Source: a virus (taxonomy: Duplodnaviria; Caudoviricetes). Taken from it: 64,000 nucleotides of DNA. Within the stretch, counting starts at the first letter, position 1; every line of letters begins with the position of its first letter. The stretch lies in IMG/VR virus record IMGVR_UViG_3300042975_000096; one strand, 5' to 3'. Under the pieces are notes generated by a model. That model worked only from the letters and a program-made list of their open reading frames with translations, was not told the DNA's origin and made no database searches. Positions 11,575 to 52,166 of this stretch are shown one piece after another. A program made the translations under genes and the position numbers.

Positions 11575-12387
11575 TTAATAATTCATATATAATGATTCTT
11601 GCACAAATACATTCTTTTTACGCAACCGATTAAAGCTAGACATCCCACTATCAATAAGAATGTGTCGTTTATAAATATCATTTGGCAACTCTACTTCAAA
11701 TGATTCATCTCCACGTTTTCCATCATAAGAAAGCATAAAACGAATATTTCTATCATTCAAATCTCTAAGAAAATCTATAAACTTATTATAATCAATTGTT
11801 CCAAAATACATTCCTTTTGTATGAAAATAAGGAGGGTCTAAATAAACAAAATCTTTATCTGTTGCTGTTTTTACTAAATCTGCATAACTTTTATGATAAA
11901 ACTTTGCATTTTGAATATTGCTTGTCCAATCCTCAATAATATTTCTTAGCTTCTTTGGATTAATACCTGGGCGGTTCAAATGAAAAGAATTATTAAATTC
12001 TCCCTTTTGATTAAATCGAATCAAACCATTCGTGCACGTTCTTGACAAAAATAATAGTTGCTCCGGTTTTTGTTCTTTGTTAAATAAGTCTCTCGTTTCA
12101 TAATAAACGTCCTGACCATTTTTCTGCAACTCTTTCCATAAACGTTCATATTCATTCATAATATGAATTGGATTATCACGAATTTCTTTCCACAAATCAA
12201 TCAACGGTTCGCAAATATCACCACAAATTGATTTTTTGGGATGTAAATTATACAAAATAGCCCCACCGCCAATAAACGGTTCATAATACGTATCGAATTC
12301 TTTTGGTACATATTTCAAAATTTCATCTGCCTGACTACGTTTACTTCCACTCCATTTTATAATTGGTTGCATATTATTTTTCCTCAC
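11575..12387 (-). CDS. Dam-family (D12 class) DNA adenine methyltransferase
   Basis: IKWSGSKR, YYEPFIGGG, catalytic YLDPPY. Confidence 0.9.
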   Translation of the reverse strand: MRKNNMQPIIKWSGSKRSQADEILKYVPKEFDTYYEPFIGGGAILYNLHPKKSICGDICEPLIDLWKEIRDNPIHIMNEYERLWKELQKNGQDVYYETRDLFNKEQKPEQLLFLSRTCTNGLIRFNQKGEFNNSFHLNRPGINPKKLRNIIEDWTSNIQNAKFYHKSYADLVKTATDKDFVYLDPPYFHTKGMYFGTIDYNKFIDFLRDLNDRNIRFMLSYDGKRGDESFEVELPNDIYKRHILIDSGMSSFNRLRKKNVFVQESLYMNY

Positions 12388-20643: not shown

Positions 20644-23106
20644 TTAATTCGTGCTGTTTTTGTATGTTGATGCACACAAGTCAATGGTATCAACAGTAAT
20701 TCCACCAAAACCTTTTCTACCAGTAACTTTCACAATAGCATTAACAAAAATTTCTTTCTTATTTCTTTGATAAATATTATCCCAAACAGTTAATCGTATC
20801 GTTTCTCTAGGAGTTTGAATCACAACATTTTTGAAATCTTTTCCTTTTTTTGTCTGACGATTAATAATGTTTGTAATAATACCTGCTGTCCTTGTTATTT
20901 TTCCATCAGGTATGCTATCAAATGGAGGAAGATTCTTTAATTTATCCTCTAGCGGATGTGGAATAAATGTTAATGCAAATTTTTCCATTTCTTTCAGATA
21001 TTGGGATATTTTATTTTCTTTTAAATTAACAATATCATCATATGCTTTTTCAAAAGCTATTTCCTCTTTCGTTAATTTAATTTCTGCTTTTTCTTCTTTC
21101 AATATTCCTTTAGGTTTTTTTCTAGTCTTATAAGATAAAACCGCATCTTCCTTAAATCCGAATTGCTCTAGCATTGGTGATGGTATAACTAATGTACCAT
21201 CTTTTTCATAAATTAAATCATCACCGAATTCTTCTAAATATTTACCCTTAATCAAATCTTGGGGTATTGCATAATTCGGAACAGCTTTACTGCTCTTACA
21301 TTCTAAATATTGCTTATACCAAAGCTCTTGTTGCTCACGATTCATATAAACAGCAACCGTATTTTCATCGTGTTGTTTAATCGTTAATGTTCCAATATCC
21401 TCATAATCAATAAGATTTTGGTTCACAATTAATGCAATGTTTTCAAATGCACCAATATCAATTCCAGCTTCAACGACAGCTTTTCCACCGCCTTTTCCAC
21501 CTTTATTCTTTAAGAAAAATTCTTGAAAATTAGCGAATGGTTGATTTGGCACTAAATCTTCAACTGCCTTTTCTCCAATTCCTTTTACGCATTTCAAGCC
21601 CATACGAATGACATTATTATCTATATCTTCAATTATAGATTCATACTTTGATTTTGAAATATCAGGTGGAGCAATTACAATGCCGTGTCGTTTTGCTTCT
21701 TTCATACATTCTTGTAAACTATCAACTGATTCTGTATTGAATAATGATACATAAAATACCAATGGATAGTTAGCTTTTACCCATGCTGTCCAATATGAAA
21801 TGAATGAATATGCGATAGAATGTGATTTATTGAATAGATATGCACAATTATCTAAGATTGCTTTACGAATATCTTCACAAGCTTTTCTGTCAATTCCACG
21901 TTTTACGCCTTCAGTAACAGATTTTTCCTCAAATTCTTTTACTAATTCAACATTTCCCTTTTTATTTGGCTTTTCCAACGCTCTACGATAAATATCAGCC
22001 TTACCAAAAGAAACCCCTAACAGCTCACTTATCAAAGACATAATTTGTTCCTGGTAAACGATTCCTCCCATAGTAACTGCCAAATGTTTATCCAAAATTG
22101 GATGGAATTTTCTTATTTTACTTGGGTCTTTCTTTGCAGCACAGTATTCATCCAATCCACTAGTTCCTGGGCGCACAAATGCGTTAACTGCTGAAAGTTC
22201 CTCTATGTTTCTTGGTTTTATTTTTCTAATAATATCTTTACCAATTGGAGAAGACATCTGAAAAATTCCCATGGTATCACATGAACAAATTAAATCCCAT
22301 GATTTTTTATCATCCATGGGAATATCTTCCAATTTCATATCAACCTTATAAACTTTTTTCAATACTTCCATTTGGTTATACAATGCACTAATATTTTTTA
22401 ATCGAAGTATATCTAGTTTTACTGCTCCTGCTGTTTCAACATTTTCTTTTTCAAATTGTGCCATTAATCCAACAAAACCATTAGGCGTTGGAGTAGCTTC
22501 CTCAACAGGCATTAAATCGGTTATAGGCATTGGCGTTACGCAAATACCTGCTGGATGCTGAGAATGATGTCTAGGTGCACCATATAGCTTTTCACAATGT
22601 TGAAAAACACCTTGATGTTTTGCAAAAAAAGCCTTTAATTCTTTTATTTCTAAAAGCTCTTTGAATTCCTTAAAATCTTTTCCATCCTTTGGAACAAATT
22701 TAGTAATTGCATTAACTTCTGAAATTGGGACTTCAAATGCTCGACTAACGTCTTTAATTATTGCTCTTGCTTGCAAATTAGAAAATGTAATGATATTACA
22801 ACAATGGTCTTTACCATATAATTTATTTAAATGTTCAAAAACCTGTGAACCTTTAAAAATGCAAAAATCCGAATCAATATCAGGCAAATGTCCTCTATCT
22901 GCATTTAGAAAACGGTCAAAAATCAAATCATACTTCATAGGATTAACCTGCGTAATATTCAAAGCATAATTAACTAATGACCCTGCACCACTATTATGAA
23001 CAATTAGTCCATCAATATTATACGAATGCGCATCTTCAACAGTTAAATCATATACTTTTCCTTTATATGAGGAAATTTCTTTTTTCGTTATTTGTTTAAA
23101 TTTCAA
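20644..23106 (-). CDS. dnaE: DNA polymerase III alpha, C-terminal half, with N-terminal split-intein C fragment
   Basis: First 38 aa end VYDLTVEDAHSYNIDGLIVHN, then SGAGSLV; catalytic PDIDSDF, HPAG, KLDIL, YQEQIM, FNKSHS, OB-fold C-terminus. Confidence 0.95.
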   Translation of the reverse strand: MKFKQITKKEISSYKGKVYDLTVEDAHSYNIDGLIVHNSGAGSLVNYALNITQVNPMKYDLIFDRFLNADRGHLPDIDSDFCIFKGSQVFEHLNKLYGKDHCCNIITFSNLQARAIIKDVSRAFEVPISEVNAITKFVPKDGKDFKEFKELLEIKELKAFFAKHQGVFQHCEKLYGAPRHHSQHPAGICVTPMPITDLMPVEEATPTPNGFVGLMAQFEKENVETAGAVKLDILRLKNISALYNQMEVLKKVYKVDMKLEDIPMDDKKSWDLICSCDTMGIFQMSSPIGKDIIRKIKPRNIEELSAVNAFVRPGTSGLDEYCAAKKDPSKIRKFHPILDKHLAVTMGGIVYQEQIMSLISELLGVSFGKADIYRRALEKPNKKGNVELVKEFEEKSVTEGVKRGIDRKACEDIRKAILDNCAYLFNKSHSIAYSFISYWTAWVKANYPLVFYVSLFNTESVDSLQECMKEAKRHGIVIAPPDISKSKYESIIEDIDNNVIRMGLKCVKGIGEKAVEDLVPNQPFANFQEFFLKNKGGKGGGKAVVEAGIDIGAFENIALIVNQNLIDYEDIGTLTIKQHDENTVAVYMNREQQELWYKQYLECKSSKAVPNYAIPQDLIKGKYLEEFGDDLIYEKDGTLVIPSPMLEQFGFKEDAVLSYKTRKKPKGILKEEKAEIKLTKEEIAFEKAYDDIVNLKENKISQYLKEMEKFALTFIPHPLEDKLKNLPPFDSIPDGKITRTAGIITNIINRQTKKGKDFKNVVIQTPRETIRLTVWDNIYQRNKKEIFVNAIVKVTGRKGFGGITVDTIDLCASTYKNSTN
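22993..23106 (-). other. Split intein C fragment (IntC, 38 aa)
   Basis: Block F VYDLTV and block G terminal HN followed by a Ser +1 nucleophile; basic N-terminal part. Confidence 0.9.
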
Positions 23107-23161: not shown

Positions 23162-23458
23162 TATTGGATTCACGCACCCGTACAGGGTGCGACGAGATGG
23201 TACAACTGAAGAAGTTAGTACCTTATGTGTTTCAATTCACGCACCTCTGCGAGGTGCGACTCTGACATGATTAAAAAATCTAAAGCATTGCAAATTTCAA
23301 TTCACGCACCTCTGCGAGGTGCGACTGACGGAGACAAAATAAATTATAGCCGTTGGTCAATTTCAATTCACGCACCTCTGCGAGGTGCGACGTTGGATAT
23401 CCTGCCCTGTCTTACCCTCTGCCACTATTTCAATTCACGCACCTCTGCGAGGTGCGAC
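23162..23458 (-). CRISPR. Type I-C-like CRISPR mini-array 1 (5 repeats, 4 spacers of 35/33/34/35 nt)
   Basis: 32-nt repeat GTCGCACCTCGCAGAGGTGCGTGAATTGAAAT (minus strand) at 23229, 23294, 23360, 23427, plus a degenerate trailer repeat at 23162. Confidence 0.95.
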
Positions 23459-25047: not shown

Positions 25048-25273
25048 TATTTTATTCACGCACCCGTATGGGTGCGACCGAAATGGATGCAGACCATGTA
25101 ACGGCATGGAGTATTTCAATTCACGCACCTCGCAGAGGTGCGACATTATGATTTTTCGCATCAAGTCAAGGTGTATATTTCAATTCACGCACCTCTGCGA
25201 GGTGCGACACGCCCTATAAAAAATCAAAAATGTGTTATGACATTTCAATTCACGCACCTCTGCGAGGTGCGAC
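25048..25273 (-). CRISPR. Type I-C-like CRISPR mini-array 2 (4 repeats, 3 spacers of 34/32/33 nt)
   Basis: Repeats at 25113, 25177, 25242 plus a degenerate trailer ending at 25078. Confidence 0.95.
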
Positions 25274-25473
25274 AGCACACATGCCAAAGCCTTGCTACGC
25301 AAGGGCTGAAATGGCATTTTGTGCGAACCCCTAACTATTTTACAAAATTCATTGACATTTCCCCATGTAAACCTCAATGAACCCTGTAAAACAAAGGGGT
25401 GCGAAGCACCTAGTGTTTTTCTGTTCACTTATGCTTCGCACTTATTATATCATTTAATTTATTATTTTGTCAA
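25274..25473 (-). promoter_or_regulatory. CRISPR leader 2 with sigma-A promoter
   Basis: Copy of leader 1; TTGACA-18-TATAAT at 25444-25473. Confidence 0.9.
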
Positions 25474-25481
25474 GTGGTTTT

Positions 25482-27608: not shown

Positions 27609-28025
27609 TCAATCAAAAATATTACCAATAACATTAATAGCATGGTTTGCAACATAACATTTCAAATAATCTCTACTACCATCTTCAAATTCAATATCAA
27701 AGCACCCATCATTGAATTTTACAATCCCATTATATTTTTTCAAATAACAGCTAACAATATCATTTTCATAAATAAGTTTATGATTATTATCAGCCATATC
27801 TGAACACATACATACTGTATCACCATCAACTTCTGCACGAAGATGCTGATTGGGTAAATTCCAATCAGTCATTGAATCGTAAACAATATAATGTTTTTTA
27901 TTGTTTTTTCTTTCTTCTTCTGAAATTTCATCCTCAAAACAAAATGTTGTTTCCTCTAAACAAATATAATATCCAGTTACAAAATGTTCGGAATCTATCA
28001 ACTTAGCTCTCGCTTTTAACACCAT
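27609..28025 (-). CDS. YopX-family phage protein
   Basis: LKARAK...V.GYY, DNNHKLIYENDIV, C-terminal VIGNIFD; likely start at 28025. Confidence 0.8.
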   Translation of the reverse strand: MVLKARAKLIDSEHFVTGYYICLEETTFCFEDEISEEERKNNKKHYIVYDSMTDWNLPNQHLRAEVDGDTVCMCSDMADNNHKLIYENDIVSCYLKKYNGIVKFNDGCFDIEFEDGSRDYLKCYVANHAINVIGNIFD

Positions 28026-29085
28026 ACTCGCCACCTTTTTTAAGAATAGCATTTTGCAATGATACAGGTGATATTGGTAATGGTAAATCTTCCAATACGG
28101 AATAATCACAATCATAAGCATTACACATTTTTTTCGCCAAATCAATATCTAAATATGACATTTCAAATGTATAATCAAATCTTCCAGGGCGCACTAATGC
28201 TTTATCTAATTCATCAAATCGATTTGTAGTTGCAACAAAAATGCAATTAGTTGGTGATAATGCACCATCTAAAACATTTAATAACGTTTGCATAATATCG
28301 TTCTTATCATTATCTCTATCCGTTACCAAACAATCAATATCCTCAATCAAATAAACCGTTTTGTCACTAACCAAAGAAGAATATGATAATTTCTTATCTT
28401 TTACAGATATATATTCAATATTCCAATTCAGATAAGAAGCAATTGCTCGTGCCATAGATGATTTTCCAGTACCAGGTTTACCATAAAACAAAAATCCCAA
28501 CTTATATGTGATTCCATGTTGAACATAAAAACTTTTTTTGTTTTTCCACTCATCCAAAATATTTTTTATTTCGTCTGTGTGCTGTGTAAACACATCATTT
28601 ATATTACGTTTCAATGCCCAAATCCATCCAATATCACTTTTTATAATGATACTATTTTCTTTCCCTGGAAGTTTATCGCTTAAATATTCTTTATAACCAG
28701 CTAAATATTTGTTTTTATTTTTTCCTATGATTTGGAGTTTTATCGAATATATTACTGAATATGCACTAGCTTTATCTAAGATTGTACTGTCAACAATAGC
28801 AAACGTTAAACCATCCAATTTCATATAATATGTACCTGTTGCTAAAACTACACCAGCCAAACAATTTCTAGAATATCGCACATGTCGTTTTAAGCTATTT
28901 GAGCCATTTACAGAAAAAACCCAATCCATTGAATTACTGTATATTTCCCCTTCTTCTGAACAAAACTGTATAGTAGAAGAGTTTAATTGAACTAAAACAC
29001 TGAATAATTTAGATGGAATATCTTTTAAAATAAATCCAAAGTAACCAAACAATGCAACAATTACACCTTGACTTAAAAAATCCAT
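28003..29085 (-). CDS. BCS1-like membrane-anchored AAA+ ATPase
   Basis: N-terminal TM segment, GFLFYGKPGTGKSS, LIEDID, LLNVLDG, LDKALVRPGRFD. Confidence 0.85.
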   Translation of the reverse strand: MDFLSQGVIVALFGYFGFILKDIPSKLFSVLVQLNSSTIQFCSEEGEIYSNSMDWVFSVNGSNSLKRHVRYSRNCLAGVVLATGTYYMKLDGLTFAIVDSTILDKASAYSVIYSIKLQIIGKNKNKYLAGYKEYLSDKLPGKENSIIIKSDIGWIWALKRNINDVFTQHTDEIKNILDEWKNKKSFYVQHGITYKLGFLFYGKPGTGKSSMARAIASYLNWNIEYISVKDKKLSYSSLVSDKTVYLIEDIDCLVTDRDNDKNDIMQTLLNVLDGALSPTNCIFVATTNRFDELDKALVRPGRFDYTFEMSYLDIDLAKKMCNAYDCDYSVLEDLPLPISPVSLQNAILKKGGEYGVKSES

Positions 29086-29099
29086 TTAATTTTCCCCTT

Positions 29100-29597
29100 C
29101 TACTCATTCTTATTTTTGATGAAATTTATAATTCTATCGACATCTTCTCTTTTCTTACCGAAAGAATACAAAATATTTTTTAACGTATTAATCTTTACTT
29201 CTGGATTCTTTTTATCCGAATCAATCCCAACATCAACGAATTGAATATTTATGTTTGTTAGAATTGACTTGTCAACGTTTTTAAAAAATAAATTTTTATC
29301 ATTAAATTCAATGGGGAATTCATTTTTCAAAAAACAAAAAATCGTATCCAATCTTTTGTTTCCATCTAAAATGATAAATTTATTATGTTTATCTTTATGG
29401 TAAAAAATAGGAACGTTAGGAAATCCTAAAAATAATGATTGAATATATGATTTTTTATTTTCTAAATCAAAAAATGTATCAGAATAAATTACAGAATTGT
29501 AATTATTTATCATTGATTTCAATTTAATCAAATTCATTTCTTCCGTATTATTAATGATTTTTCCCATTTTGGTTTTATAATCAATATCCGAAAACAT
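29100..29597 (-). CDS. Stand-alone DUF262 (ParB-like) domain protein
   Basis: YIQSLFLGFP.PIF and ILDGNKRL.TI..F (DGQQR variant). Confidence 0.7.
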   Translation of the reverse strand: MFSDIDYKTKMGKIINNTEEMNLIKLKSMINNYNSVIYSDTFFDLENKKSYIQSLFLGFPNVPIFYHKDKHNKFIILDGNKRLDTIFCFLKNEFPIEFNDKNLFFKNVDKSILTNINIQFVDVGIDSDKKNPEVKINTLKNILYSFGKKREDVDRIINFIKNKNE

Positions 29598-29625: not shown

Positions 29626-31299
29626 TTAACTTTCACCTTCACAAATATAATCGCCACAATCTAATTCTTCAGCACGATACCATTTTGGCTCTCGAATACC
29701 ATTATCAAAATCATGTTTTTTAATTGCCAATATTTTATGGTCTAAAGTAACATTTTTAATCACTTTTTCATCACAAGCAATTGAAGCAACCTTTTCTTCA
29801 ATATCATATTCATGTTTTGCAATCACCGGATGTTTCAATTCATCATGACAATAAACGACATCTCCAATAGAAACATTCTTTAATGGTTTAATCCCGTTTG
29901 TTGTTTTAACAACGTTATCTCCATCAAAGCAACCTCTACCTGGACCCAATGGCACATTATTTGTATGGCAAAAATCAGCAATATCATAATAAATCAAAAA
30001 ATAATCTGGGAAATCCATCTTATCAATAATTCCCAATTCATATTTAAGTCTATCACGATATTCTTTTGAAGTCAACTTCTTTTCCCTAAGACCCTTAATG
30101 CAAAGATATTTTAAATAATCCTCATTTGGTTTTTCAGGGTGACTAAGTTTGCTTCTCCATTTTTTAAATCCAGGCTCTTCAACAGGAATATTGATTTTTG
30201 GAAGATAATGTTTATCAAAACCAAAATGTACATTACATTGTTTTGCGATTTCTTCTGATTCATCAATTGCTTTTTCAATTGCAACCTGGTCTAAATCATT
30301 ATAATCAATTGTTCCTTCTTCTAGAACATCAATAAATCTATCATGAAACTTTTCGCTATCTTTTTCTACATATTTCATGCCATCATAAATTTTATCAGGC
30401 GATTCATATCTAGCACCATCATAATCATAAACATAAAATTCTTTATCAACATTACGCTTTTCATTATGAACTAAGATTTTTTTATATTTCATTTTTTTCT
30501 TAAATGAAGCAACAATTTCATCCCTAGACATAACATAATAAGAATTCCCCTGAAATCTCCATCTACTAGGGTCACTCATTAAACTTCCACTCTGCAAACA
30601 CAAAAGTACATCATGTGTGCTTTTATCTTCTTTATTGAGATAATGCGCATCTGTTGTAGCAACCAAAGGAATGCTCAAATCTTTGCTAAGTTCAATCAAT
30701 CCCTTATTTACCTTAAACTGCTCTACCATTTCTGTAGGTTGAATTTCCAACCAAAAATTACCATTAAATAATTTTTGATAATATAATGCCTGTTCTTTTG
30801 CAGATTCATAATCATCATGCAATAAACTTTGAGAAATAATTCCTGCCAAACAAGCGGATGTGCCAATTAAATCATTTTCTTTTTCGTCCATAAACATTTT
30901 TAAAACATTGTTATCAATTCTAGGACGATAATACTTTCCTGTAATGAATCCTTCAGAACAAATCTTACATAATTTTTTATAACCATTATTATTTTTAGCT
31001 AAAAGCAAAAAGTGATTTCTATTTGTAGTTGATTCATCTTCTGATTCAGACTTGCCCTTAATCAGTCTATCTTTAACCATATATGCTTCAAAACCAGCTA
31101 TTGGTTTTTGCCCCATTTTTTCTGCTCGTTTAAAGTGGTCAATAATAGTATACATGTTTCCATGGTCTGTAATACAAGATGCAATCTGATTCATTGCTAA
31201 TGTTTTATCAACCAAATCATTTACTTTTATCATTCCATCCAACAAACTACGTTCTGAATGTAAATGTAGATTAACAAAATTATTACTCAAAATATGCAC
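29626..31299 (-). CDS. dnaE: DNA polymerase III alpha, N-terminal half (PHP domain), with C-terminal split-intein N fragment
   Basis: FVNLHLHSERSLLDG, ITDHG, ATTDAHY, FPDYFLI, GPGRG followed by intein CFDGD... Confidence 0.95.
   Translation of the reverse strand: MHILSNNFVNLHLHSERSLLDGMIKVNDLVDKTLAMNQIASCITDHGNMYTIIDHFKRAEKMGQKPIAGFEAYMVKDRLIKGKSESEDESTTNRNHFLLLAKNNNGYKKLCKICSEGFITGKYYRPRIDNNVLKMFMDEKENDLIGTSACLAGIISQSLLHDDYESAKEQALYYQKLFNGNFWLEIQPTEMVEQFKVNKGLIELSKDLSIPLVATTDAHYLNKEDKSTHDVLLCLQSGSLMSDPSRWRFQGNSYYVMSRDEIVASFKKKMKYKKILVHNEKRNVDKEFYVYDYDGARYESPDKIYDGMKYVEKDSEKFHDRFIDVLEEGTIDYNDLDQVAIEKAIDESEEIAKQCNVHFGFDKHYLPKINIPVEEPGFKKWRSKLSHPEKPNEDYLKYLCIKGLREKKLTSKEYRDRLKYELGIIDKMDFPDYFLIYYDIADFCHTNNVPLGPGRGCFDGDNVVKTTNGIKPLKNVSIGDVVYCHDELKHPVIAKHEYDIEEKVASIACDEKVIKNVTLDHKILAIKKHDFDNGIREPKWYRAEELDCGDYICEGES
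29629..29931 (-). other. Split intein N fragment (IntN, 101 aa)
   Basis: Block A CFDGDNVVKT..G.K....V.IGD.V, block B VTLDHKI (TxxH), W..AEEL..GD, then stop. Confidence 0.9.
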
Positions 31300-33234: not shown

Positions 33235-33449
33235 ATTTCGATTCACGCACCTCGTAGAGGTGCGACGTTAGCAAGGTAGCAGATAACAAGCGATTAGCGG
33301 ACATTTCAATTCACGCACCCATACAGGGTGCGACTATCAGGATTGCACAAATTTCAATTCACGCACCTCTGCGAGGTGCGACGTTATATTTCTTTTCCGT
33401 TTCTCTATTTTATCTATATTTCAATTCACGCACCTCTGCGAGGTGCGAC
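33235..33449 (-). CRISPR. Type I-C-like CRISPR mini-array 3 (4 repeats; spacers of 36/16/35 nt)
   Basis: Repeats at 33235, 33303, 33351, 33418. Confidence 0.95.
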
Positions 33450-36433: not shown

Positions 36434-37324
36434 TTAATAGTTAGTAACCAACACTTCAACTGTTTTACTAACTCTATCCTTTTTATGATAGCTTGCATTA
36501 CCATAATCATAATTCAAATAATGCACATTATATTTTTTAGACCAACCAATTAATAAATCATTGCTTTTCCCATTAACCTCAAATACATTTGATAATGCAA
36601 ATTTACATTTTAATGAATTTAGCAAATCAAACAAATCTTGTTCTTCTTTTTCCGTCCATAATTTATTATAAACCGAATCCGTTATTAAATACGGAACATC
36701 ACAATAAATTAATGTATTCTTATCTATATTATTAAAATCAATTTTTCTAAAATCTTTATTCATAAAAGCAATATTCTTTTGTTTCATTAAATTAGAAAAA
36801 TCAACTACTTTTTTTCTTAGTCTTTTATTGAAATCGGATTTGCCAACAGGCATATTATAATATCCATCTTTATTAAACCGAATTTGATTGTTAAATGAAA
36901 ACATAATTATTGCAAAAAACAATTCAATATCAATAATCCCTTGAGTTTTTAAATCATTAAAATCTTCTCTTAATGCAAGATAATTTTCCTTATTATAATG
37001 ACTCAATCCCCAATTATTATGTCCATTATTATAATATTTAATGCCATTTAAATGTGATTCCGATAAATGATAGTCATTAACAATATTTTCAATATTATGA
37101 ATAATCACATTAGATTCTGTTTCGTTCAAATATTTCAACAATCGAATTACATATGAATCAATATCATTCATAATTACATTTTTTGATTTAACGTTAATAC
37201 CTACATTACCGCCACCACAAAACAAATCAATAAAACTATCTGTATCATAAAACAACGGAATTATTTGTGGCAATAATTTATATTTTCCCCCTGTATAATT
37301 TAACGGACTTTGTACGAAATCCAT
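36434..37324 (-). CDS. Second Dam-family DNA adenine methyltransferase (DVPY variant)
   Basis: SPLNYTGGKYKLL, FIDLFCGGGNV, IRFNKDG.YN.P.G, YCDVPY, EVLVTNY. Confidence 0.85.
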   Translation of the reverse strand: MDFVQSPLNYTGGKYKLLPQIIPLFYDTDSFIDLFCGGGNVGINVKSKNVIMNDIDSYVIRLLKYLNETESNVIIHNIENIVNDYHLSESHLNGIKYYNNGHNNWGLSHYNKENYLALREDFNDLKTQGIIDIELFFAIIMFSFNNQIRFNKDGYYNMPVGKSDFNKRLRKKVVDFSNLMKQKNIAFMNKDFRKIDFNNIDKNTLIYCDVPYLITDSVYNKLWTEKEEQDLFDLLNSLKCKFALSNVFEVNGKSNDLLIGWSKKYNVHYLNYDYGNASYHKKDRVSKTVEVLVTNY

Positions 37325-37380
37325 CCCATATTTCTCTCCCCATCTAAATAATGGGATGCTATTGCACATCCCATCTCATA

Positions 37381-42353: not shown

Positions 42354-43649
42354 ATGGCAGGTGGAGTTTTTGGTGGCGGTGATGGTTCTCAAAAATCACC
42401 ATTCTTAATAGAAGACGGTGCAGATTTATATCAAATGAGAAATCATCCTACCTCCTATTTTAAATTAATCTCAAACATTAATTTAGGTGAACCACCATAT
42501 AATGAAAAACGTGGCTGGGAACCAATTAATAGTTTCCGTGGGAGATTAGATGGAAATTATAAAAAAATATTTAATTTAACAATTACTAGACAGGATGAAG
42601 ATGATATTGGTCTTTTTAGTGTAATTGATGCAAATGCATGTGGAACATCAACACCATGTTATAATGTTTGTTTTGAAGAAACAAATATTATTGGTGGTAA
42701 TAATGTCGGTGCACTTTGCGGTAGATTTATTCATAATAATGACACATGGATTGGAAAAATTGATTTTTCAATCATTCAAAATTGTTATGTAGATGGAAAC
42801 ATTGAAGGTAAAAATAACGTTGGTGGATTTATTGGTAAAATCGATTCTTCAGCAAGTGCAACACAAAATAGACAATTGCCAATCGCAAGAGATTCTATTT
42901 CAAACTGTTCTTTAGCATTATCAAATGCAGATTCTACATTTATTGGTCAATTCGTTGGAATTATATCTGATAAATGGAACAATAGTTGCCAATACACACA
43001 TCCAAATTTTTACAACACATTGGCAACGGGCAGTATTTCTCCAAATTCAAAAACGCCAACAAAACCAGGTAATTACTTCTATGATTTGTATAATCAAGGC
43101 GTTTATACGAATTCTTATATGGATAATGCTCTTTGGGGATTTACAAATTTTGGAGATACTACACTTAAATGTATGGATACGTCTGAATTGAAATCAATCG
43201 CAAATCAAGCTGATTTTGCAACAATATTGAATGACGATAAGATTTCTCATAAATTCAGTTTATACGATGGGAGATATGTACAATTAGCATATCAAAGCCC
43301 TGATTATTTCTTCATTAAGGCTGACGATAATTTCTATACTTATGATTTTACAACTTCAAAATGGATTTTAAAATACAATCTAACTCCTTCTAGACAACAA
43401 GCAATTATCAACGGAATGCGAGCTTTACAGGATGTTCCACAAACAGCATGGGATTATTTCAAAACATTCCAAAATGTAAGTATAATTGATATTCTAGACA
43501 AAAAAGATAGTACACTTCAAACAACACAAGAAACAGAATTAGATATAGATGCTACACATACTAGTGACGATAATAAAAAAATGATTGTAAAACAAAAATT
43601 TTATTTTAACACTAGAATCGGTAATCTATCTAAATTGACAGGATGGTGA
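42354..43649 (+). CDS. GLUG-motif beta-helix adhesin/fibre paralogue 1
   Basis: FGGGDGSQKSPFLIEDGADL, F.G.LDGN.K.I.NL.I, IGLFS, NVGGFIG. Confidence 0.8.
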   Translation: MAGGVFGGGDGSQKSPFLIEDGADLYQMRNHPTSYFKLISNINLGEPPYNEKRGWEPINSFRGRLDGNYKKIFNLTITRQDEDDIGLFSVIDANACGTSTPCYNVCFEETNIIGGNNVGALCGRFIHNNDTWIGKIDFSIIQNCYVDGNIEGKNNVGGFIGKIDSSASATQNRQLPIARDSISNCSLALSNADSTFIGQFVGIISDKWNNSCQYTHPNFYNTLATGSISPNSKTPTKPGNYFYDLYNQGVYTNSYMDNALWGFTNFGDTTLKCMDTSELKSIANQADFATILNDDKISHKFSLYDGRYVQLAYQSPDYFFIKADDNFYTYDFTTSKWILKYNLTPSRQQAIINGMRALQDVPQTAWDYFKTFQNVSIIDILDKKDSTLQTTQETELDIDATHTSDDNKKMIVKQKFYFNTRIGNLSKLTGW

Positions 43650-43656
43650 TTCTATA

Positions 43657-44937
43657 ATGGCTAATGGTTACTTTGGTGGGGGAGATGGAACTCCTGCTAA
43701 TCCATTTTTAATTGAAGATGCTGATGATTTAAATTCAATCAGAAAACATTTAGGTAGTAGTTATAAAATAATAAATGATATAAATTTAGCTGATGGTAAA
43801 TACAATGTAGAACAAGGATGGAATCCTATTGATAATTTTACAGGAACGTTAGATGGACAAAATCATAAATTAATTAATTTATATATTAATCGTCCTGCAC
43901 AAGATAATGTAGGATTATTTGGTCATGTACATGCCAACAATACAATCACAGTCAATAATTTACAAATAATTGATTGTGATATAACAGGGCATAATCAAGT
44001 TGGTTCGCTATTGGGATATAATGAAAATCCTTCTTGGGAATTTAATAGCTCATATACAGTTAATAATGTTTATGTTAAAGGAAAAATAACTGGTAATGCA
44101 AATGTAAGTGGTTTGATTGGTTATATAGGCATTATTGGTATTAATGGGGAATATCTTGATAAAGAAATTCGCACTTCCTTTACAATTAATTTAAATAATA
44201 TTTTTTGCAATGTTAATATTTCAAGCAATGACAACATTGCTTATGGTATAACTAAAATTATCGCAAATCGAATATCTGGTAGCAATTGCAATAGTCAATG
44301 GAATTGTAATTGTGTAACACAAGCATCTATTACTTTTACTAACTGTTTTACTATTATGCATAAAAACGATAAGATTTTAACTTATTATGCAATTTGCAAT
44401 CCTGAAAACAATAACAACACATACGCTTGTTATACAGATAACACGGAAATTTCTCCTATTATTTATTCAGGAACAGATTATGCTAATCTTCAAAATATAA
44501 AATTTCAAAATGGTTGGCTTCCAAAAATAGACCCAACTTATTATAATAAACAAATTGCCAAACAACCTGAACCTGTATTGTTGAATTTAAATAACATCTA
44601 TGTATTCTTTAATAATGGATATTACACTTATGATTTATCAACAAAAACGTGGACAAGAAAATATACCACTTTAGATAACAACAATTCAAAGAAAATAATT
44701 CAAAATGGAATGAATAAATTGGATTTCAATCACATTCCACAAGAAGTTTGGGTTACATTGAGCAAACAATATTCAGAAATTAAAGTGGTTAATTGTATTA
44801 ATGCACATGATAAAATATTGTATCATGAAAGCAGAGTTACATTGCCAACATATACAACTTCTGAAAGCAAAAATATTGTAAAGAAAAAAATAAAATTCGA
44901 AGACTTTAATAATAATATTACGAAAATTATAAAATAA
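43657..44937 (+). CDS. GLUG-motif adhesin/fibre paralogue 2
   Basis: FGGGDGTPANPFLIEDADDL, FTGTLDGQNH, NVGLFG. Confidence 0.8.
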   Translation: MANGYFGGGDGTPANPFLIEDADDLNSIRKHLGSSYKIINDINLADGKYNVEQGWNPIDNFTGTLDGQNHKLINLYINRPAQDNVGLFGHVHANNTITVNNLQIIDCDITGHNQVGSLLGYNENPSWEFNSSYTVNNVYVKGKITGNANVSGLIGYIGIIGINGEYLDKEIRTSFTINLNNIFCNVNISSNDNIAYGITKIIANRISGSNCNSQWNCNCVTQASITFTNCFTIMHKNDKILTYYAICNPENNNNTYACYTDNTEISPIIYSGTDYANLQNIKFQNGWLPKIDPTYYNKQIAKQPEPVLLNLNNIYVFFNNGYYTYDLSTKTWTRKYTTLDNNNSKKIIQNGMNKLDFNHIPQEVWVTLSKQYSEIKVVNCINAHDKILYHESRVTLPTYTTSESKNIVKKKIKFEDFNNNITKIIK

Positions 44938-44952
44938 GGCAGGTGATTAGAT

Positions 44953-46245
44953 TTGAACGGTCACTTTGGTGGAGGAAAAGGAACGTTAGCAAACCCATAT
45001 CTTATTGAAGATATTTGGGATTTTGATAATATTCGCCATTTCCCTAATAAAAGTTTTAAATTAACAAAAAATATCAATTTCGCCACGCCCCCATTTAATG
45101 ATGGTTTTTTACCAATTGCTCATTTTGAGGGTCAATTAGATGGTGATGGACATAAATTAATGAATGTTTATATCAACAAATCTAATATGGATAATGTTGG
45201 CATATTCTCTCTCGTTGATTTTGCATTAACCAATTATCAAGATGTATCCATCAGACCACATATTTGCAATCTCGTTATTGAAAATGCAAATGTAATTGGA
45301 GGTAAAAGTTCCGCAGGAATTCTAATTGGAGCTATGAATTATCATTATAATTGGGGTGTTGCCAATTATGGAGAATATTTAAATAATATTTATGTTAGTG
45401 GTACAGTTAGTGGTTATAACTATAACGGAGCATTGATTGGATATTTATATTTTGAACATGACAATTGGCAAAACACTTTTGCTAAAAACATTCAATGCAA
45501 CGTTGTATTAAAACCACAATTAAATTTAACATATAATTCTCCGTTATTTGGTTACATTAAATCTAATGAACAATCATATATCAACACTATTGAATTAATA
45601 AAAGATTCATTTATTGAAGCTTCTATCGATGATTCATTAGTTACATTATCTATGAATAATTGTAGTTCTCACGTTAATTCAAATGCAGGACAAAATGATA
45701 CATATCATTATAGATGCAACAATGTTATTCTAAATCAGGATAAATGGAATGGAAAACATTCTACTTATATTAATGAAATGACTTATGCTGATATTTGTTT
45801 GGCTTATAAAATGAGTGGTTTTAAATCCAATATAACTGATATAAATAAATGGTATTTACGTTATAATATTGCCCCACAATTGTTAGAATTGAATAATAAT
45901 TTATATTTTGTATCTGCAAATAATAAATTTTATACTTATGATTCTGACAAAGATTTATTTAATCAGGTTTATATTTTCGATTATGAACAAGCCGTTGCTA
46001 ATAAAGGGATTACTAATTTATCTGATTTATCAGTTAATTTCTTTAAATCTGCACATAAAACATTCGGTGATTCATATAAGATTGTAAATATAATTGATAA
46101 AAATAATGGTGTTATATTAAATAATGATACTGAAATTGTTTTAACTAGAGATGCAACAAAAGATTATGATTCAAAATATGTTTATAGAAAAAAAGTAAGC
46201 TTTTCTACTATAACAGGTGATATTGATTCTATTGTCGATGAATAA
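44953..46245 (+). CDS. GLUG-motif adhesin/fibre paralogue 3
   Basis: FGGGKGTLANPYLIEDIWDF, FEGQLDGDGH. Confidence 0.8.
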   Translation: MNGHFGGGKGTLANPYLIEDIWDFDNIRHFPNKSFKLTKNINFATPPFNDGFLPIAHFEGQLDGDGHKLMNVYINKSNMDNVGIFSLVDFALTNYQDVSIRPHICNLVIENANVIGGKSSAGILIGAMNYHYNWGVANYGEYLNNIYVSGTVSGYNYNGALIGYLYFEHDNWQNTFAKNIQCNVVLKPQLNLTYNSPLFGYIKSNEQSYINTIELIKDSFIEASIDDSLVTLSMNNCSSHVNSNAGQNDTYHYRCNNVILNQDKWNGKHSTYINEMTYADICLAYKMSGFKSNITDINKWYLRYNIAPQLLELNNNLYFVSANNKFYTYDSDKDLFNQVYIFDYEQAVANKGITNLSDLSVNFFKSAHKTFGDSYKIVNIIDKNNGVILNNDTEIVLTRDATKDYDSKYVYRKKVSFSTITGDIDSIVDE

Positions 46246-46263
46246 TAATGGACGGTGATAATT

Positions 46264-47555
46264 TTGGCAAGTGGAAAATTTGGTGGCGGTAATGGTTCAG
46301 CTAGTACCCCATACTTAATAGAAGATGTAAAAGACTTAAATGCAATTCGTTTCTTCCCTGATAAATGTTTCAAATTAACGCAGAGCATTAATCTTAGCGT
46401 TTATCCTTATAATACAAATTCAGGTTGGCTTCCAATTGCAAACTTTTGTGGTCAATTAGATGGCGATGGTCACAAAATAATTAATTTGTACATTAATAGA
46501 CCTAATATTGATAACGTTGGATTTTTCTCTGTTATTTTCAAAAAAACGAACATTGATTTGGTTGTAAAGAATTTATACTTTGACAACGCTACAGTTTATG
46601 GAAATAATAATGTCGGCGTTGTGGCAGGAGCAATCAATATTCAAGAAACAGTTGCCCCACAAACGAACTATTTCTTTGAAAAATTAAAAATTACAGGCAC
46701 AATTAATGGTAGCAATCAAGTCGGTGCAGTATTAGGAAGAATTTATTGGGATGGAACTTTTGCATGGACTCCTAATTTCATTCTTAATTCAAGAACAACA
46801 GTTAAAGTTACTGTTAAGTCTTCTGGCGTTGACTATTCAGGATTGGTTGGATATGGTGCATTATCTAGAGGAACAATAAAAGTTTCTCACTTCATATCCG
46901 ATTGTAGTTTCAGTAACATTGTTGCTGGTGCTACCACAACCTTAAATCCAAATCATTGGACAAGAACTGATACAAATGGAATTACTTATGATAATTCGTT
47001 CTACAGTTCTGATACATGGACTTATGGAACAAAAACAAATAACAAAACAAATCAAGAATTATCCGTTGTTACTTTGGGTGATTTTGATAAACAAATAAAC
47101 CCTGACGGACTTTGGTTTGGAGTTTTAAAAAGAATGATAGAGTTGTAGACTTGAATCTCTTCTTATTCAAAAAGCATTTTATAAAAACTTCTAAGGGATA
47201 TTATATATATGACTTTGATAAATCACAATGGGTAAAGAAGTTTGATAAACCTTATACTCGTGAACAATTGATTGCTAACGCAATGGACAATGTAGATAAT
47301 ATTCCATTTAAAGGATGGGATGCATTAAAAGCATTACTTCCTTCAGGAGAAACTACTTTTGATTTGATTGACATAATTGAAGATTCTAATGGAACTACGT
47401 ATACAGAATCTATATTAAACATGGATTTGGATTCTACACATACGGCAGGTACAGATAAAAAATTATTCTCAAAAAAAATCACATTCGTTGATTCTAATGG
47501 CAAAAAATTATATGGCGATACAATTGTTCAAATTGATAAAGGAATTATAAAATAA
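46264..47555 (+). CDS. GLUG-motif adhesin/fibre paralogue 4, split by a -1 frameshift at about 47106-47130
   Basis: ORF 46255-47148 has the family N-terminus and ORF 47112-47555 the family C-terminus (YYIYDF....W, IP..GW..L, YGDTIVQI); joined length about 430 aa like its neighbours. Confidence 0.75.
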
Positions 47556-47569
47556 GAGGTGTTTTACTA

Positions 47570-48778
47570 ATGGCTAATGGAAAATTTGGTACTCCTACGG
47601 GAACAGGTACAGTTGGTACAGATGCAAATCCATACATTATTGAAGATGGATATGATTTAGCAGCAATCAAAAATGATTTGTCTGCATACTATAAATTGTC
47701 TAAATCTGTTGATTTAACAAAAATTTGTAACGAATCTGACGGAACAGGTTGGACTCCAATTGAAGGATTCAACGGGGTTCTTGATGGTAGTGGATTCATG
47801 ATTAAAAATCTTTTCATTAATCGCGTTGCTGATAATCAGGCTTTATTCTCCACTACTCGCGGAGCAACAATTATGAATATCGGTTTGATTGATGCAAATG
47901 TTACAGGTGGAACGAATAATACTTCATTATTCGTCGGAAATATGACTTCTTACGATGACGTTTTGAAGAACTGTTTCTCTACAGGCGTTGTTACTTCTGA
48001 TTCTAATGTAAGCGGATTGGTAGGTACGCTTAATGGCGGTACAATCAGAAATTGCTATTCTTTAGCTTCTGTTGTCTGCACGAATACATCTTCTTCTAAC
48101 GGTGCAGGATTGGTTGGTATTATGGCACTTTCACAATCCTCAATCATTAAAAGTTATTATAATGGCAAAATTACAGGCGCAACCAACTTTCAACCCTACG
48201 TTGCAACTAACACGGCTGGTGGTTCAATTAATGATTGCCATTACAACTCTGATAATGTCGCTCTTGCTGCCAAAGCTTCAGGCGCATTATCTCAATCTGA
48301 CATGCAAAATCCAGACAATTTCAAATCATGGACAGACGAATATTATAACTATGATAAAGCTGTTTGGGTGCTTCGTAATGGTTCTGTTCCTCAGTTATTT
48401 TATACAGAAGCTACTAAGTATTTCATCTCTATTGTTAAGGATACAAAAACAGTTTTCTTAACATTCAAAGATAATACTTGGACTACATTAATGAATGATG
48501 ATGGTTCTGCCGTTACATTCCCAACTGCTGAACAGTTTACACAGCATGGTATTACCGATAATGAATTATCTGCCATTTCTCGTTTCAAATGGAATGAATT
48601 AAGACAGTATAATGAATTCGAACTTATTGCTTCTACAGATAAATATATCATTGATAGACAGATTGAAACTAAGAAAATGGAGTTAACACAAGAATTAACT
48701 GATGCTTTAGTTTTGTCAACGACTATTGATTTTAGTAAATATGGAGATTCAATTAATCAGATTAAAATCACTCAATAA
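47570..48778 (+). CDS. GLUG-motif adhesin/fibre paralogue 5
   Basis: GTDANPYIIEDGYDL, FNGVLDGSG, VSGLVG. Confidence 0.8.
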   Translation: MANGKFGTPTGTGTVGTDANPYIIEDGYDLAAIKNDLSAYYKLSKSVDLTKICNESDGTGWTPIEGFNGVLDGSGFMIKNLFINRVADNQALFSTTRGATIMNIGLIDANVTGGTNNTSLFVGNMTSYDDVLKNCFSTGVVTSDSNVSGLVGTLNGGTIRNCYSLASVVCTNTSSSNGAGLVGIMALSQSSIIKSYYNGKITGATNFQPYVATNTAGGSINDCHYNSDNVALAAKASGALSQSDMQNPDNFKSWTDEYYNYDKAVWVLRNGSVPQLFYTEATKYFISIVKDTKTVFLTFKDNTWTTLMNDDGSAVTFPTAEQFTQHGITDNELSAISRFKWNELRQYNEFELIASTDKYIIDRQIETKKMELTQELTDALVLSTTIDFSKYGDSINQIKITQ

Positions 48779-48794
48779 AGGAAGGTGAATATTA

Positions 48795-51700
48795 ATGGCA
48801 AATGGTACATTTGGTGGTGGCAATGGAACACAAACAACACCATTTTTAATAGAAGATATTGCAGATTTAAATGCCATTAGAACAAAACCAACCCTTTATT
48901 ACAAACTAGTTAACAATTTAGATATGAAAGGTTCATCCTTTAACGATGCAGTTAAAGGATGGACTCCTATATCTTCATTTTCTGGATATTTTGATGGTAA
49001 TTATCATAATATTAGAAATTTAACTATAAATGATACTACTTTAAAGGGTGCAGGATTATTTGCTGATATTACCACTAAAGGAGAGTTACACAATTTAGGA
49101 TTAATTGATGTATCTATTAAAGGTGGAAGTCAGACAGGTTCTTTTGCTGGAAGTTTTAGCGGAAATAATGTAACAATAGACCGTTGTTATGTTAACGGAA
49201 AAGTTGAAGGTACTCGTGATGTTGGTGGCGTTGTTGGTCAATCTCGTTCTAGAAATAATAATACTATATCCAATGTCGTATGTGATTGTCAAGTAATCGG
49301 AACTTCTGATAATGTTGGTGGTATTTGTGGCGAATTTACTTCTATAACTGATGATGATAAAACACGTTCTATTATGAATGCGGTTATGTTTTATAATACA
49401 GTTTCAGGAAACAACTTCATTACCACAAATGCAATGATTGGTCTTGCCGATGCAATTACTTCTTATAGCGATTGTTTTTACGATTCTTCAAAAGTTTCTG
49501 AAAATTATCCTGATGAACACGCTTCAGGACAAAAAACAGCATATTTTTATGGGAATGATAATTTCAAAAAGTTGATTACGCTAACTTATATTGATAATGA
49601 TAATAAAATAAATTCATTATGGAATTTTTCTAGTGAAGATTATCCTAGACTTGGATTCGCAAATAAAAAATATACATTATTTAAAATTGATAATGTATAT
49701 AATTATTACGATTTCACAACTAATGCATTTGTTCCTATTGATGGTTCTATTTCAACTTCTATATTCTTTGCAAAAGGAATCAATCCTAATTTGGTTGAAA
49801 CAATACCTCAAACTATTTTACATGATACAATGAAAAACCATGCATTTCAAGTATTTATGTTATTTGATACAAATAATAAAAATGTATTGTATCCATATTT
49901 CAAAACATTATCCGATAAAGTTAGTGATACGAAAAAGTTGAGATTAACTACAATTAACAGAAAAGACCTTATTACGACTGATTTTAATCCAGTTTCTTCT
50001 AATGCTCAAATTACAACAATAAACGAGGTTGAAGCAACTTCTGTTCCTGTTGCAATTCGAACTGAATCAAACTCTGATTTTGATGAATCAACATTAAAAG
50101 AAATCGATGCTAGAATTTTTTATGATAAATCTTCCGTTGATTCTAATCCATTTAATGTTTCTGTCCAATCTAATACTAGTGATAGCGAATCATCAGACAG
50201 TGCATTAAATGATAATCGTACCATTTCTATTATGAGTTCTAAAGCAAATGAATATTCAGGTATCAACTTGAAGGTTGCTTCTGATACAAATAATAAAAAT
50301 ACCGATTATAACGACATTTATTCTAAAATTATTTTTGATAAATCAACTGAAAAACAAAATATTAAAGGGAATGTTTTCTACACACTGTATAATACTATTA
50401 CTACTCAAAATCGTGGTATTCACGTTAATGCAGAAGGAGAAAATAAATCTAAATATTTATTGTCTGTATCTAATGGTAAATCATGGTTGAAATACGATAC
50501 AACCACAAACAATTGGGTTACTGCTGATTTAGCAAATATCTACGAAGAAGGAATTTCTGCTGAACAATTAGCTTCTCGCGCAATCATGAATTCTTTGCCA
50601 ACTGATTATAAATCGAAAATTAAATATGCTGCTTGTATTTCTTCTGAAGCATTTAATACGGTTTTCAGTATCAAAGATATTAATATTGAATTCGAACCAA
50701 ATTCAGGCCCAACTGTCTTAGAAGCTTCTTCTACAGAAACGGATGATAATGTAACTATTTCTGGTACTGTTTTCGATAATGAAAATGATGATATTCAATA
50801 TCGTATATTGACTAAGCATCAGATTGAAACTGAATGGAAACAGTTATTACCTACTTCTGTTGACGGTTGGTTTACTCAGAAAAACAACTACTCTTTCAAA
50901 CATTCGTTCCCATTATCTTCTTTCAAGAATGGAACAAATGCTATAAAGATTCAAACAAAAGATTCTCGTGGAACTTCCTATGAAAAAATAATTTCATTTA
51001 CATTGATTGGTGGTAATCCTGAAATTAAAATTAATTCAAATAACCAATTCTATGCAAATGCTACTATTACTCATTCTCAAAATAAAAAGGTTCATTATAA
51101 GATTTTCATCAATGGTGAACAAAAAGCTCCACTCACAGGATGGACTGAATATCGTCAAACTCCATTCACTTTCGATTATACATGGCAGACTTCTGATGTA
51201 CTGAATGGTCTTCCAAATGAAATCGAAATTGTAGTAGAAGACGAAATGCAATCTCAAGCATTTACTAAATTTAATATCGTCGGTGAATATAAATCACTCT
51301 TGTTCAAAGATGAAAATAATTTCTATTATTCTACTGATACAGGCGAGATTCTTCAGCAACTCGATTTCGGTACTGTCGTTGGTGGCGTATTATCTAATAT
51401 TTATCCTGTTTGGCTCGAAAATAAAACGGGTCTTCCAATGGAAAATATTACCATTTTCGCTGACTCAACTACACAAGAAGATTTGTCTAAGATAAAGGTT
51501 TCCTTTACCACTGATGATTCAACGTTAGGTACTTCATTCGTTCCTGCTGAATCTATCGTTTATGATAAGATTATTGATAATAATGACGTTATCAAATTCT
51601 ATGTTCGTATCGATTCTGACGATGCCGTTAAATCCTTGAAGAATAAGGTATTCCGTGTCCTTGCAAAAGGAGACCCAATTGATTCATCTATTGACAATCC

Positions 51701-52166
51701 GCAAGTGACAAAAGATACTTATACTTCTTTAAGCAAAAACTATGATGTTTTAAAAGATGGTTTAGGTCTTTATAATATTAAATTGGCTAACCTTAATGAT
51801 ACAAAACAAATCAATGGCAAGAATATATTCATTGCTTATGATAAGGTTTATGTATCAGACCCGAACAAGGTTTCTAAGAACGATTTCTTAAAATCTCCTG
51901 TAAAAGATTCTGTTCGTCAACAAGATTATACGAATTATTTAGCAGACAATGCTTCTTATCAGGTTTATTCTATTGATTGGCTCAATGATTTCTGTAAAGA
52001 TACATTCAATGATACATTCAATAATCTTACTAAATCTGGTAAATTGTCTTATGAAGCTAAATTGGAATATAATGCGTTCTATGACGGTCATTATGCTTGG
52101 CTTAAAGCTGATTCCACAAATGCTTCTAAAACATTTACTCACAAATGGACACTTATGAATAGTTAA
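48795..52166 (+). CDS. Large GLUG-motif virion protein (paralogue 6) with Ig-like C-terminal extension
   Basis: FGGGNGTQTTPFLIEDIADL, VGGVVG/VGGICG, then a long beta-rich region. Confidence 0.8.
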   Translation: MANGTFGGGNGTQTTPFLIEDIADLNAIRTKPTLYYKLVNNLDMKGSSFNDAVKGWTPISSFSGYFDGNYHNIRNLTINDTTLKGAGLFADITTKGELHNLGLIDVSIKGGSQTGSFAGSFSGNNVTIDRCYVNGKVEGTRDVGGVVGQSRSRNNNTISNVVCDCQVIGTSDNVGGICGEFTSITDDDKTRSIMNAVMFYNTVSGNNFITTNAMIGLADAITSYSDCFYDSSKVSENYPDEHASGQKTAYFYGNDNFKKLITLTYIDNDNKINSLWNFSSEDYPRLGFANKKYTLFKIDNVYNYYDFTTNAFVPIDGSISTSIFFAKGINPNLVETIPQTILHDTMKNHAFQVFMLFDTNNKNVLYPYFKTLSDKVSDTKKLRLTTINRKDLITTDFNPVSSNAQITTINEVEATSVPVAIRTESNSDFDESTLKEIDARIFYDKSSVDSNPFNVSVQSNTSDSESSDSALNDNRTISIMSSKANEYSGINLKVASDTNNKNTDYNDIYSKIIFDKSTEKQNIKGNVFYTLYNTITTQNRGIHVNAEGENKSKYLLSVSNGKSWLKYDTTTNNWVTADLANIYEEGISAEQLASRAIMNSLPTDYKSKIKYAACISSEAFNTVFSIKDINIEFEPNSGPTVLEASSTETDDNVTISGTVFDNENDDIQYRILTKHQIETEWKQLLPTSVDGWFTQKNNYSFKHSFPLSSFKNGTNAIKIQTKDSRGTSYEKIISFTLIGGNPEIKINSNNQFYANATITHSQNKKVHYKIFINGEQKAPLTGWTEYRQTPFTFDYTWQTSDVLNGLPNEIEIVVEDEMQSQAFTKFNIVGEYKSLLFKDENNFYYSTDTGEILQQLDFGTVVGGVLSNIYPVWLENKTGLPMENITIFADSTTQEDLSKIKVSFTTDDSTLGTSFVPAESIVYDKIIDNNDVIKFYVRIDSDDAVKSLKNKVFRVLAKGDPIDSSIDNPQVTKDTYTSLSKNYDVLKDGLGLYNIKLANLNDTKQINGKNIFIAYDKVYVSDPNKVSKNDFLKSPVKDSVRQQDYTNYLADNASYQVYSIDWLNDFCKDTFNDTFNNLTKSGKLSYEAKLEYNAFYDGHYAWLKADSTNASKTFTHKWTLMNS

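Follow-up and report, generated by a model that had tools for sequence, protein, structure and literature searches.

Three mini-arrays in the genome of a jumbo phage

The window, that is, the whole 64,000-nt stretch of viral DNA analysed here, contains three CRISPR mini-arrays with ten spacers in total, which have the repeat and a leader of ~200 nt in common. Mini-array 1 (23162-23458, minus strand) has four spacers. Mini-array 2 (25048-25273, minus strand), which is type I-C-like, consists of three 32-nt repeats and a degenerate trailer repeat, with three spacers. Mini-array 3 (33235-33449, minus strand) also has three, one of them of 16 nt; the full-length spacers of the arrays measure 32-37 nt. 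Consecutive short spacers, of 18, 22, and 23 nt, were seen in array 3 of a sibling phage (L009:6105-6363). The leader and promoter of array 2 (25274-25474, minus strand) have 91-95% identity to the corresponding leaders of the other two arrays, and the promoter, read from 25473 to 25444 on the minus strand, matches the sigma-70 consensus at 12 of 12 positions and has an extended -10 element. Since leader and promoter lie to the right of the array, the arrays are transcribed from the minus strand.

The 32-nt repeat forms an 8-bp hairpin at its 5′ end and has a 3′ end of the ATTGAAAT type, a combination that we assign to type I-C. Besides this repeat form and the leader, the arrays show the 5′ TTC or TTT PAM of a type I-C system at the sites matched by spacers S7 (TTT) and S9 (TTC) and by the sibling spacer S22 (TTT), all described below. 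In the type I-C system of Legionella, TTT ranks second among the PAMs for both acquisition and interference (10.1101/137067).

Proteins of the window also occur on a contig of 431,886 bp, and a sibling contig of 430,772 bp is >99% identical to the window over the array region, indicating a jumbo phage of ~432 kb. No cas family appeared among the matches listed for the 59 proteins of the window, which covers 64 of the ~432 kb; the remainder may contain cas genes. The array repeat was absent from the viral contigs searched, no host array with the same repeat was found among 401 Negativicutes genomes, and the nearest virus record, G001, has neither the arrays nor a DUF262 gene. Searches of phage and plasmid collections with the arrays returned distant repeats, 85-91% matches to other DUF262-HNH genes, and nothing else.

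The same three spacers of array 2 recur in the siblings L009/L074 and L076, and most sibling strains carry neither S7 nor S9. At the array positions of four window spacers (33267-33302, 23194-23228, 23326-23359, and 33335-33350), the siblings L033/L035, L076, L009, and L023 have homologous but different spacers. Two of the pairs are identical at 30/36 and 27/35 positions, a third differs by an indel, and in translation the members of each pair are two alleles of a single protein segment. This pattern suggests either in-place updating by recombination with changed targets or repeated acquisition from one hotspot. The sense translation of the spacer at 23194-23228, for which no target was found, appears to resemble the N-terminus of phage ParB-like/methylase proteins.

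Spacer S7 matches the HNH motif of a restriction nuclease gene

Spacer S7 (25079-25112, minus strand, 34 nt) is bordered by the degenerate trailer repeat at 25048-25078 and by a complete 32-nt repeat at 25113-25144. Its place at the trailer end of a minus-strand array makes it the oldest spacer of array 2. On the plus strand, with the first base skipped, it reads EMDADHVTAWS, in which the first-pass annotation had recognised an HNH motif. This reading was correct: S7 matches, in frame and at 34/34 positions, the HNH motif (His358) of a 387-aa nuclease with GmrSD_N(DUF262) and HNH domains, encoded on the viral contig L001. The best of 1000 shuffled versions of S7 had nine mismatches to the satellite set introduced below, compared with zero observed. 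Because array 2 is read from the minus strand, the crRNA of S7 runs antisense to the mRNA of the nuclease, and its PAM is the TTT that encodes the lysine after the motif.

Exact matches were found in this one viral contig and in the genomes of two species, one Acinetobacter parvus and the other a rumen Prevotellaceae, and two further metagenome contigs with an exact match are of the same two kinds as these loci. The matches in the latter four (L002-L005) are flanked by TTT in Acinetobacter and CTT in Prevotellaceae. In every case S7 falls on the HNH motif of a protein with the GmrSD_N(DUF262)+HNH architecture, encoded downstream of an EcoRI-family adenine methylase. Inspection of the protospacer gene with PADLOC, a check named in the annotation, filed the methylase and nuclease pair as type II R-M (E 1.5e-88, 8.5e-72), the models being REase_II (PDLC03418) and MTase_II (PDLC03297). 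The GmrSD-like description holds for the domains of the target; a modification-dependent type IV GmrSD identity was rejected, as an EcoRI-family methylase is coupled to the nuclease in the full-length loci examined and REase_II is the best PADLOC model. We found no solved structure for the nuclease. In gene pair and domains, the target cassette is like the type II R-M pairs of an EcoRI-family methylase and a DUF262-HNH nuclease, of which BanLI is presumably a possible studied member. BanLI confers about tenfold phage protection, and no more (PMC3990576).

A peptide search with EMDADHVTAWS, also proposed in the annotation, did retrieve the motif in homologues. Because it is common to 100 of 123 close homologues, however, the peptide identifies no source. 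The DUF262-HNH nuclease family comprises at least 8000 clusters, and the wide conservation of the motif within it accounts for exact S7 matches in unrelated phyla.

The target is cargo of a capsid-forming satellite

By following the head genes of L001, we retrieved contigs of up to 14.2 kb. Their genes include one in the terS position, terL, portal, protease, capsid, head-tail connector, head closure, and an 84-aa gene whose product is a probable membrane protein. The R-M pair on the opposite strand, an att site, an integrase (PF00589), a primase-polymerase-like gene (phrog_2478 match, E 1.6e-12), and a packaging HNH gene complete the element. One contig, L016, spans both ends of L014 across 48 nt, giving a circle of ~14.27 kb without tail genes; in this complete element, no convincing tail or holin match was found, the one weak adhesin match having an E value of 0.007. 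The 113-aa gene preceding terL has a profile match solely to a PHROG of unknown function and is terS by position, and no profile match to an AlpA/MerR-type regulator was found in the satellite. Compared with the cfPICI core, nine genes were recovered by profile and a tenth by position. Types B and C of cfPICI, as described in the sections of PMC10085698 used here, lack one or two of the 11 core genes. The carrier of the S7 target is thus a ~14.3-kb, tail-less, capsid-forming satellite of the cfPICI-like kind. The head-tail connector (L014:5287-6249) has an N-terminal extension of ~220 aa without a family match, possibly a capsid decoration or adhesion domain.

The suggestion that the protospacer would be a restriction nuclease gene borne by a mobile element was thereby borne out, with a type I-C PAM (TTT). 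The match is in the R-M nuclease gene and not in the satellite's packaging HNH gene, which was ruled out as the S7 target; a packaging or homing HNH gene of a competing phage was among the refuting cases named beforehand.

Over its 21 nt, the att core is identical to part of a tRNA-Pro(GGG) present in Negativicutes genomes. In L001 and L007 the core continues into the 3′ end of the tRNA (attR-like), which would be expected of an integrated junction or of a longer attP; in L014 it is the integrase side that follows. The attP-like junction there (L014:9560-9600) has the 21-nt core alone, with the tRNA 3′ end missing, so that integration of this variant could disrupt the tRNA-Pro(GGG).

The backbones of L001 and L014 are ~93% identical, and their methylase and nuclease alleles are swapped, being 69-78% identical. 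The two nuclease alleles, of 387 aa and 396 aa, are 69% identical overall and have the 3′ end in common. That the alleles were swapped while the HNH-encoding 3′ end was kept points to recombination inside the nuclease gene. S7 still matches both alleles because the HNH codons are conserved, and ten contigs of the satellite family contain its exact match with TTT as the PAM. This breadth may help S7 to persist.

A second spacer matches the terminase gene of the same satellite

Spacer S9 (23261-23293, minus strand), in array 1, matches terL of the same satellite family at 32/33 positions in the 2-kb contig L046 and at 30/33 in L016, with a TTC PAM in both. None of 1000 shuffled versions of S9 came below eight mismatches, and the S9 peptide, among 122 homologues, is present in satellite TerL only. 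The L014/L018 allele of terL differs from S9 by eight mismatches and is flanked by TTG; S9 is therefore escaped in one satellite lineage. Neither S9 nor the spacers S6 and S5 had a match in the viral contigs, and the other eight window spacers, including all of array 3, yielded no target.

The annotation had suggested host anti-phage defence as a possible aim of the array. With the nuclease gene being satellite cargo and S9 hitting terL of the same element, this aim is unsupported. S9 in terL besides S7 in the R-M cargo most likely means that the aim is the whole parasite, and the landing of S7 in a defence gene is probably incidental: ~10% of the satellite's TTC- or TTT-flanked sites fall within the nuclease gene, so that one of two random hits there is unremarkable (~0.19).

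It is nevertheless conceivable, though we consider it unlikely, that S7 is kept because loss or silencing of the restriction nuclease gene aids the phage, with the satellite as a mere carrier of R-M. The target is an intact methylase and nuclease pair, S7 covers both nuclease alleles and is carried by three phage genomes, and a satellite integrated as the attR-like junction of L001 and L007 may indicate would be part of the host's defence. If the jumbo phage has no helper role, the R-M cargo is also the clearest route by which the satellite could harm it. Against this, S9 hits terL, which is no defence gene, and for two random hits one in the nuclease gene is expected ~19% of the time. Cas3 degrades processively, so which gene is hit hardly matters, and a restriction enzyme already present cuts incoming DNA ahead of any phage crRNA. 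Moreover, the R-M homologues retrieved from chromosomes of the candidate host family stand at 4-11 mismatches from S7.

Phage, satellite, and host

Phage and satellite were found together: JGI sample 3300045594 contains both the satellite contig L001 and the contig L076 of a sibling phage, whose array 2 has S7. They also share a compositional trait. GATC is absent from the window (0 observed, 197 expected) and occurs once in the satellite (59 expected), and it is also scarce in two stretches of Negativicutes DNA that contain the exact att tRNA. The window shows no avoidance of GAATTC (22 observed, 26 expected). Sporomusaceae or Selenomonadales account for most named relatives of the phage LemA protein and Bacilli for some; for the satellite TerL, the closest named relative is from a Pectinatus prophage. 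Together with the tRNA-Pro(GGG) att site, LemA and TerL make a Negativicutes host plausible. Neither the satellite backbone nor its integrase was found in 251 genomes of one Negativicutes family.

These links bear on the origin of S7. An unrelated chromosomal DUF262-HNH gene, such as that of Acinetobacter parvus or the rumen Prevotellaceae, could have supplied the spacer, as exact 34-mers occur in L002-L005 and the Acinetobacter site is flanked by TTT. We regard such a source as highly improbable. With the motif in 100 of 123 homologues, a few exact DNA matches are expected among 185,579 genomes, and beyond the motif these loci have diverged, identity in the flanks being ~60%. The Acinetobacter and Prevotellaceae loci lack the GATC avoidance of the phage (28 observed against 33 expected, and 19 against 34, respectively), and the phage LemA indicates Bacillota. 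A chromosomal source would also leave S9 without explanation; S9 and the same-sample satellite largely refute it.

As the nearest TerL relatives examined belong to sheath-tailed prophages, the jumbo phage is unlikely to supply the tails of the satellite, and any harm that it suffers from the satellite is putative.

Probable guides against a satellite

The reading that we favour, with a probability of about 0.62, is that the phage arrays guide an attack on the satellite as a whole, probably through a host Cascade-Cas3. During infection, the strong array promoters would yield pre-crRNA, which Cas5d would cut, and a Cascade-Cas3 that is most likely host-encoded would be loaded with the guides. 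This complex would bind the satellite, whether excised or integrated at tRNA-Pro, and degrade it processively, so that the resident parasite would be neither replicated nor packaged in the infected cell. If the satellite were integrated, the host chromosome would be damaged, and this would be dispensable for a lytic phage.

The spacers might instead be a record of abundant satellite DNA encountered in infected cells, or an inheritance from a host array, that brings the phage no benefit. S7 is the oldest spacer in array 2, siblings without S7 and S9 persist, and ~25 other full-length sibling spacers gave no further satellite match; it is because most siblings are without both spacers that this account carries weight. 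We nonetheless judge it improbable, since each array retains a consensus promoter and a full leader and S7 is still a perfect match with a PAM. In addition, different strains have different spacer sets, and a gene of this phage is the target of one sibling spacer, indicating that spacers are acquired on the phage itself.

That spacer, S22 of the siblings L033/L034, matches the window at 28403-28437 with two to three mismatches and a TTT PAM. The matched part lies in an AAA ATPase gene (28003-29085) that is missing in L033/L034 and split in L009. S22 against the AAA ATPase gene is a case of sibling competition.

An extension of the anti-satellite reading can be offered only tentatively and is rather doubtful: a phage without Cas proteins of its own would turn the type I-C Cascade-Cas3 of its host on a capsid-forming satellite to which it is not even a helper, and would keep a guide to the near-invariant HNH motif for coverage of the swapped nuclease alleles, a borrowed and allele-proof counter-defence.

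Comparison with known systems

The closest parallel is the Vibrio phage ICP1, whose type I-F CRISPR-Cas acts against the satellite PLE (Seed et al. 2013, in the account given in PMC8263062). As there, a lytic phage carries several spacers against one element, and the target is an integrated satellite that also defends its host. However, by that account ICP1 encodes its own cas genes, whereas none were recognised here in 64 kb and the arrays are type I-C. ICP1 is moreover the helper of PLE, whereas the jumbo phage is unlikely to provide tails to its target, which builds its own capsid. The present system is known from its sequence alone.

Arrays without cas genes have been described in huge phages (Al-Shayeb et al. 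2020, PMC7162821) and, as viral mini-arrays, in a review (PMC11656645). In the portions of these sources used here, they are compact, lack interference and adaptation genes, and are proposed to use host Cas proteins against other phages or host genes. The arrays of the window group with them by anatomy, and a spacer against a sibling phage occurs here as well. The targets reported in those portions are other phages and host genes, with no capsid-forming satellite or R-M cargo among them. Within our incomplete coverage of the literature, no published account was found in which phage arrays without cas genes target a cfPICI or the R-M genes that it carries.

In comparison with the cfPICI described in the sections of PMC10085698 used here, the satellite, known from its genes, has the integrase, primase-like gene, HNH, terL, portal, protease, capsid, connector, and adaptor, and is likewise tail-less, with a tRNA att site and defence cargo. 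It differs in that an AlpA/MerR-type regulator was not found, terS is assigned by position, and the connector is extended by 220 aa at its N-terminus. Its probable Negativicutes host also lies outside the host families listed in those sections.

In VIPR, an infecting coliphage silences a satellite by RNA guidance (bioRxiv 10.64898/2026.10.15.759431). Both systems direct RNA guides of the incoming phage against a resident satellite and a conserved gene that limits escape. Unlike the standard CRISPR spacers with PAMs seen here, VIPR is phage-encoded, non-CRISPR, and non-cutting.

The targets of phage orphan arrays are mostly unidentified, and here two spacers meet on one same-sample satellite; both matches have proper PAMs, and one satellite lineage shows an escape allele. 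If our reading holds, it would extend the ICP1/PLE type of CRISPR conflict to cas-less arrays, jumbo phages, capsid-forming satellites, and probably Negativicutes. Phage, R-M-bearing satellite, and host Cascade would form a three-party system in which one could ask if phages are able to direct the adaptive immunity of the host against elements that protect it. The case also advises caution, as a spacer may translate into the motif of a defence enzyme without being aimed at defence.

Other genes of the window

The first-pass annotation had pointed to a lone DUF262 gene ~4 kb from the array. The gene is present (29100-29597, minus strand, 165 aa, DUF262/GmrSD_N), and it is weak and degenerate: its profile score of 30.1 bits is below the Pfam cut-off of 33.2, DGNKR replaces DGQQR, no QR motif was seen, and it is 28% identical to the satellite nuclease over 69 aa. 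It occurs in siblings both with and without S7, and owing to this lack of co-variation no link to the spacer is shown. A decoy role for the gene is conceivable, with nothing here in its support.

DNA polymerase III alpha is encoded in two genes (29626-31299 and 20644-23106, minus strand), whose inner ends look like split intein halves. The DUF262, AAA ATPase, LemA, and TPM genes and arrays 1 and 2 lie between the two halves. The window, devoid of GATC, encodes two D12/Dam-family adenine methylases (11575-12387 and 36434-37369). Finally, the region 42354-52166 contains five to six paralogous genes with a common N-terminal repeat of ~30 residues, which are probably tail-fibre or receptor-binding variants.
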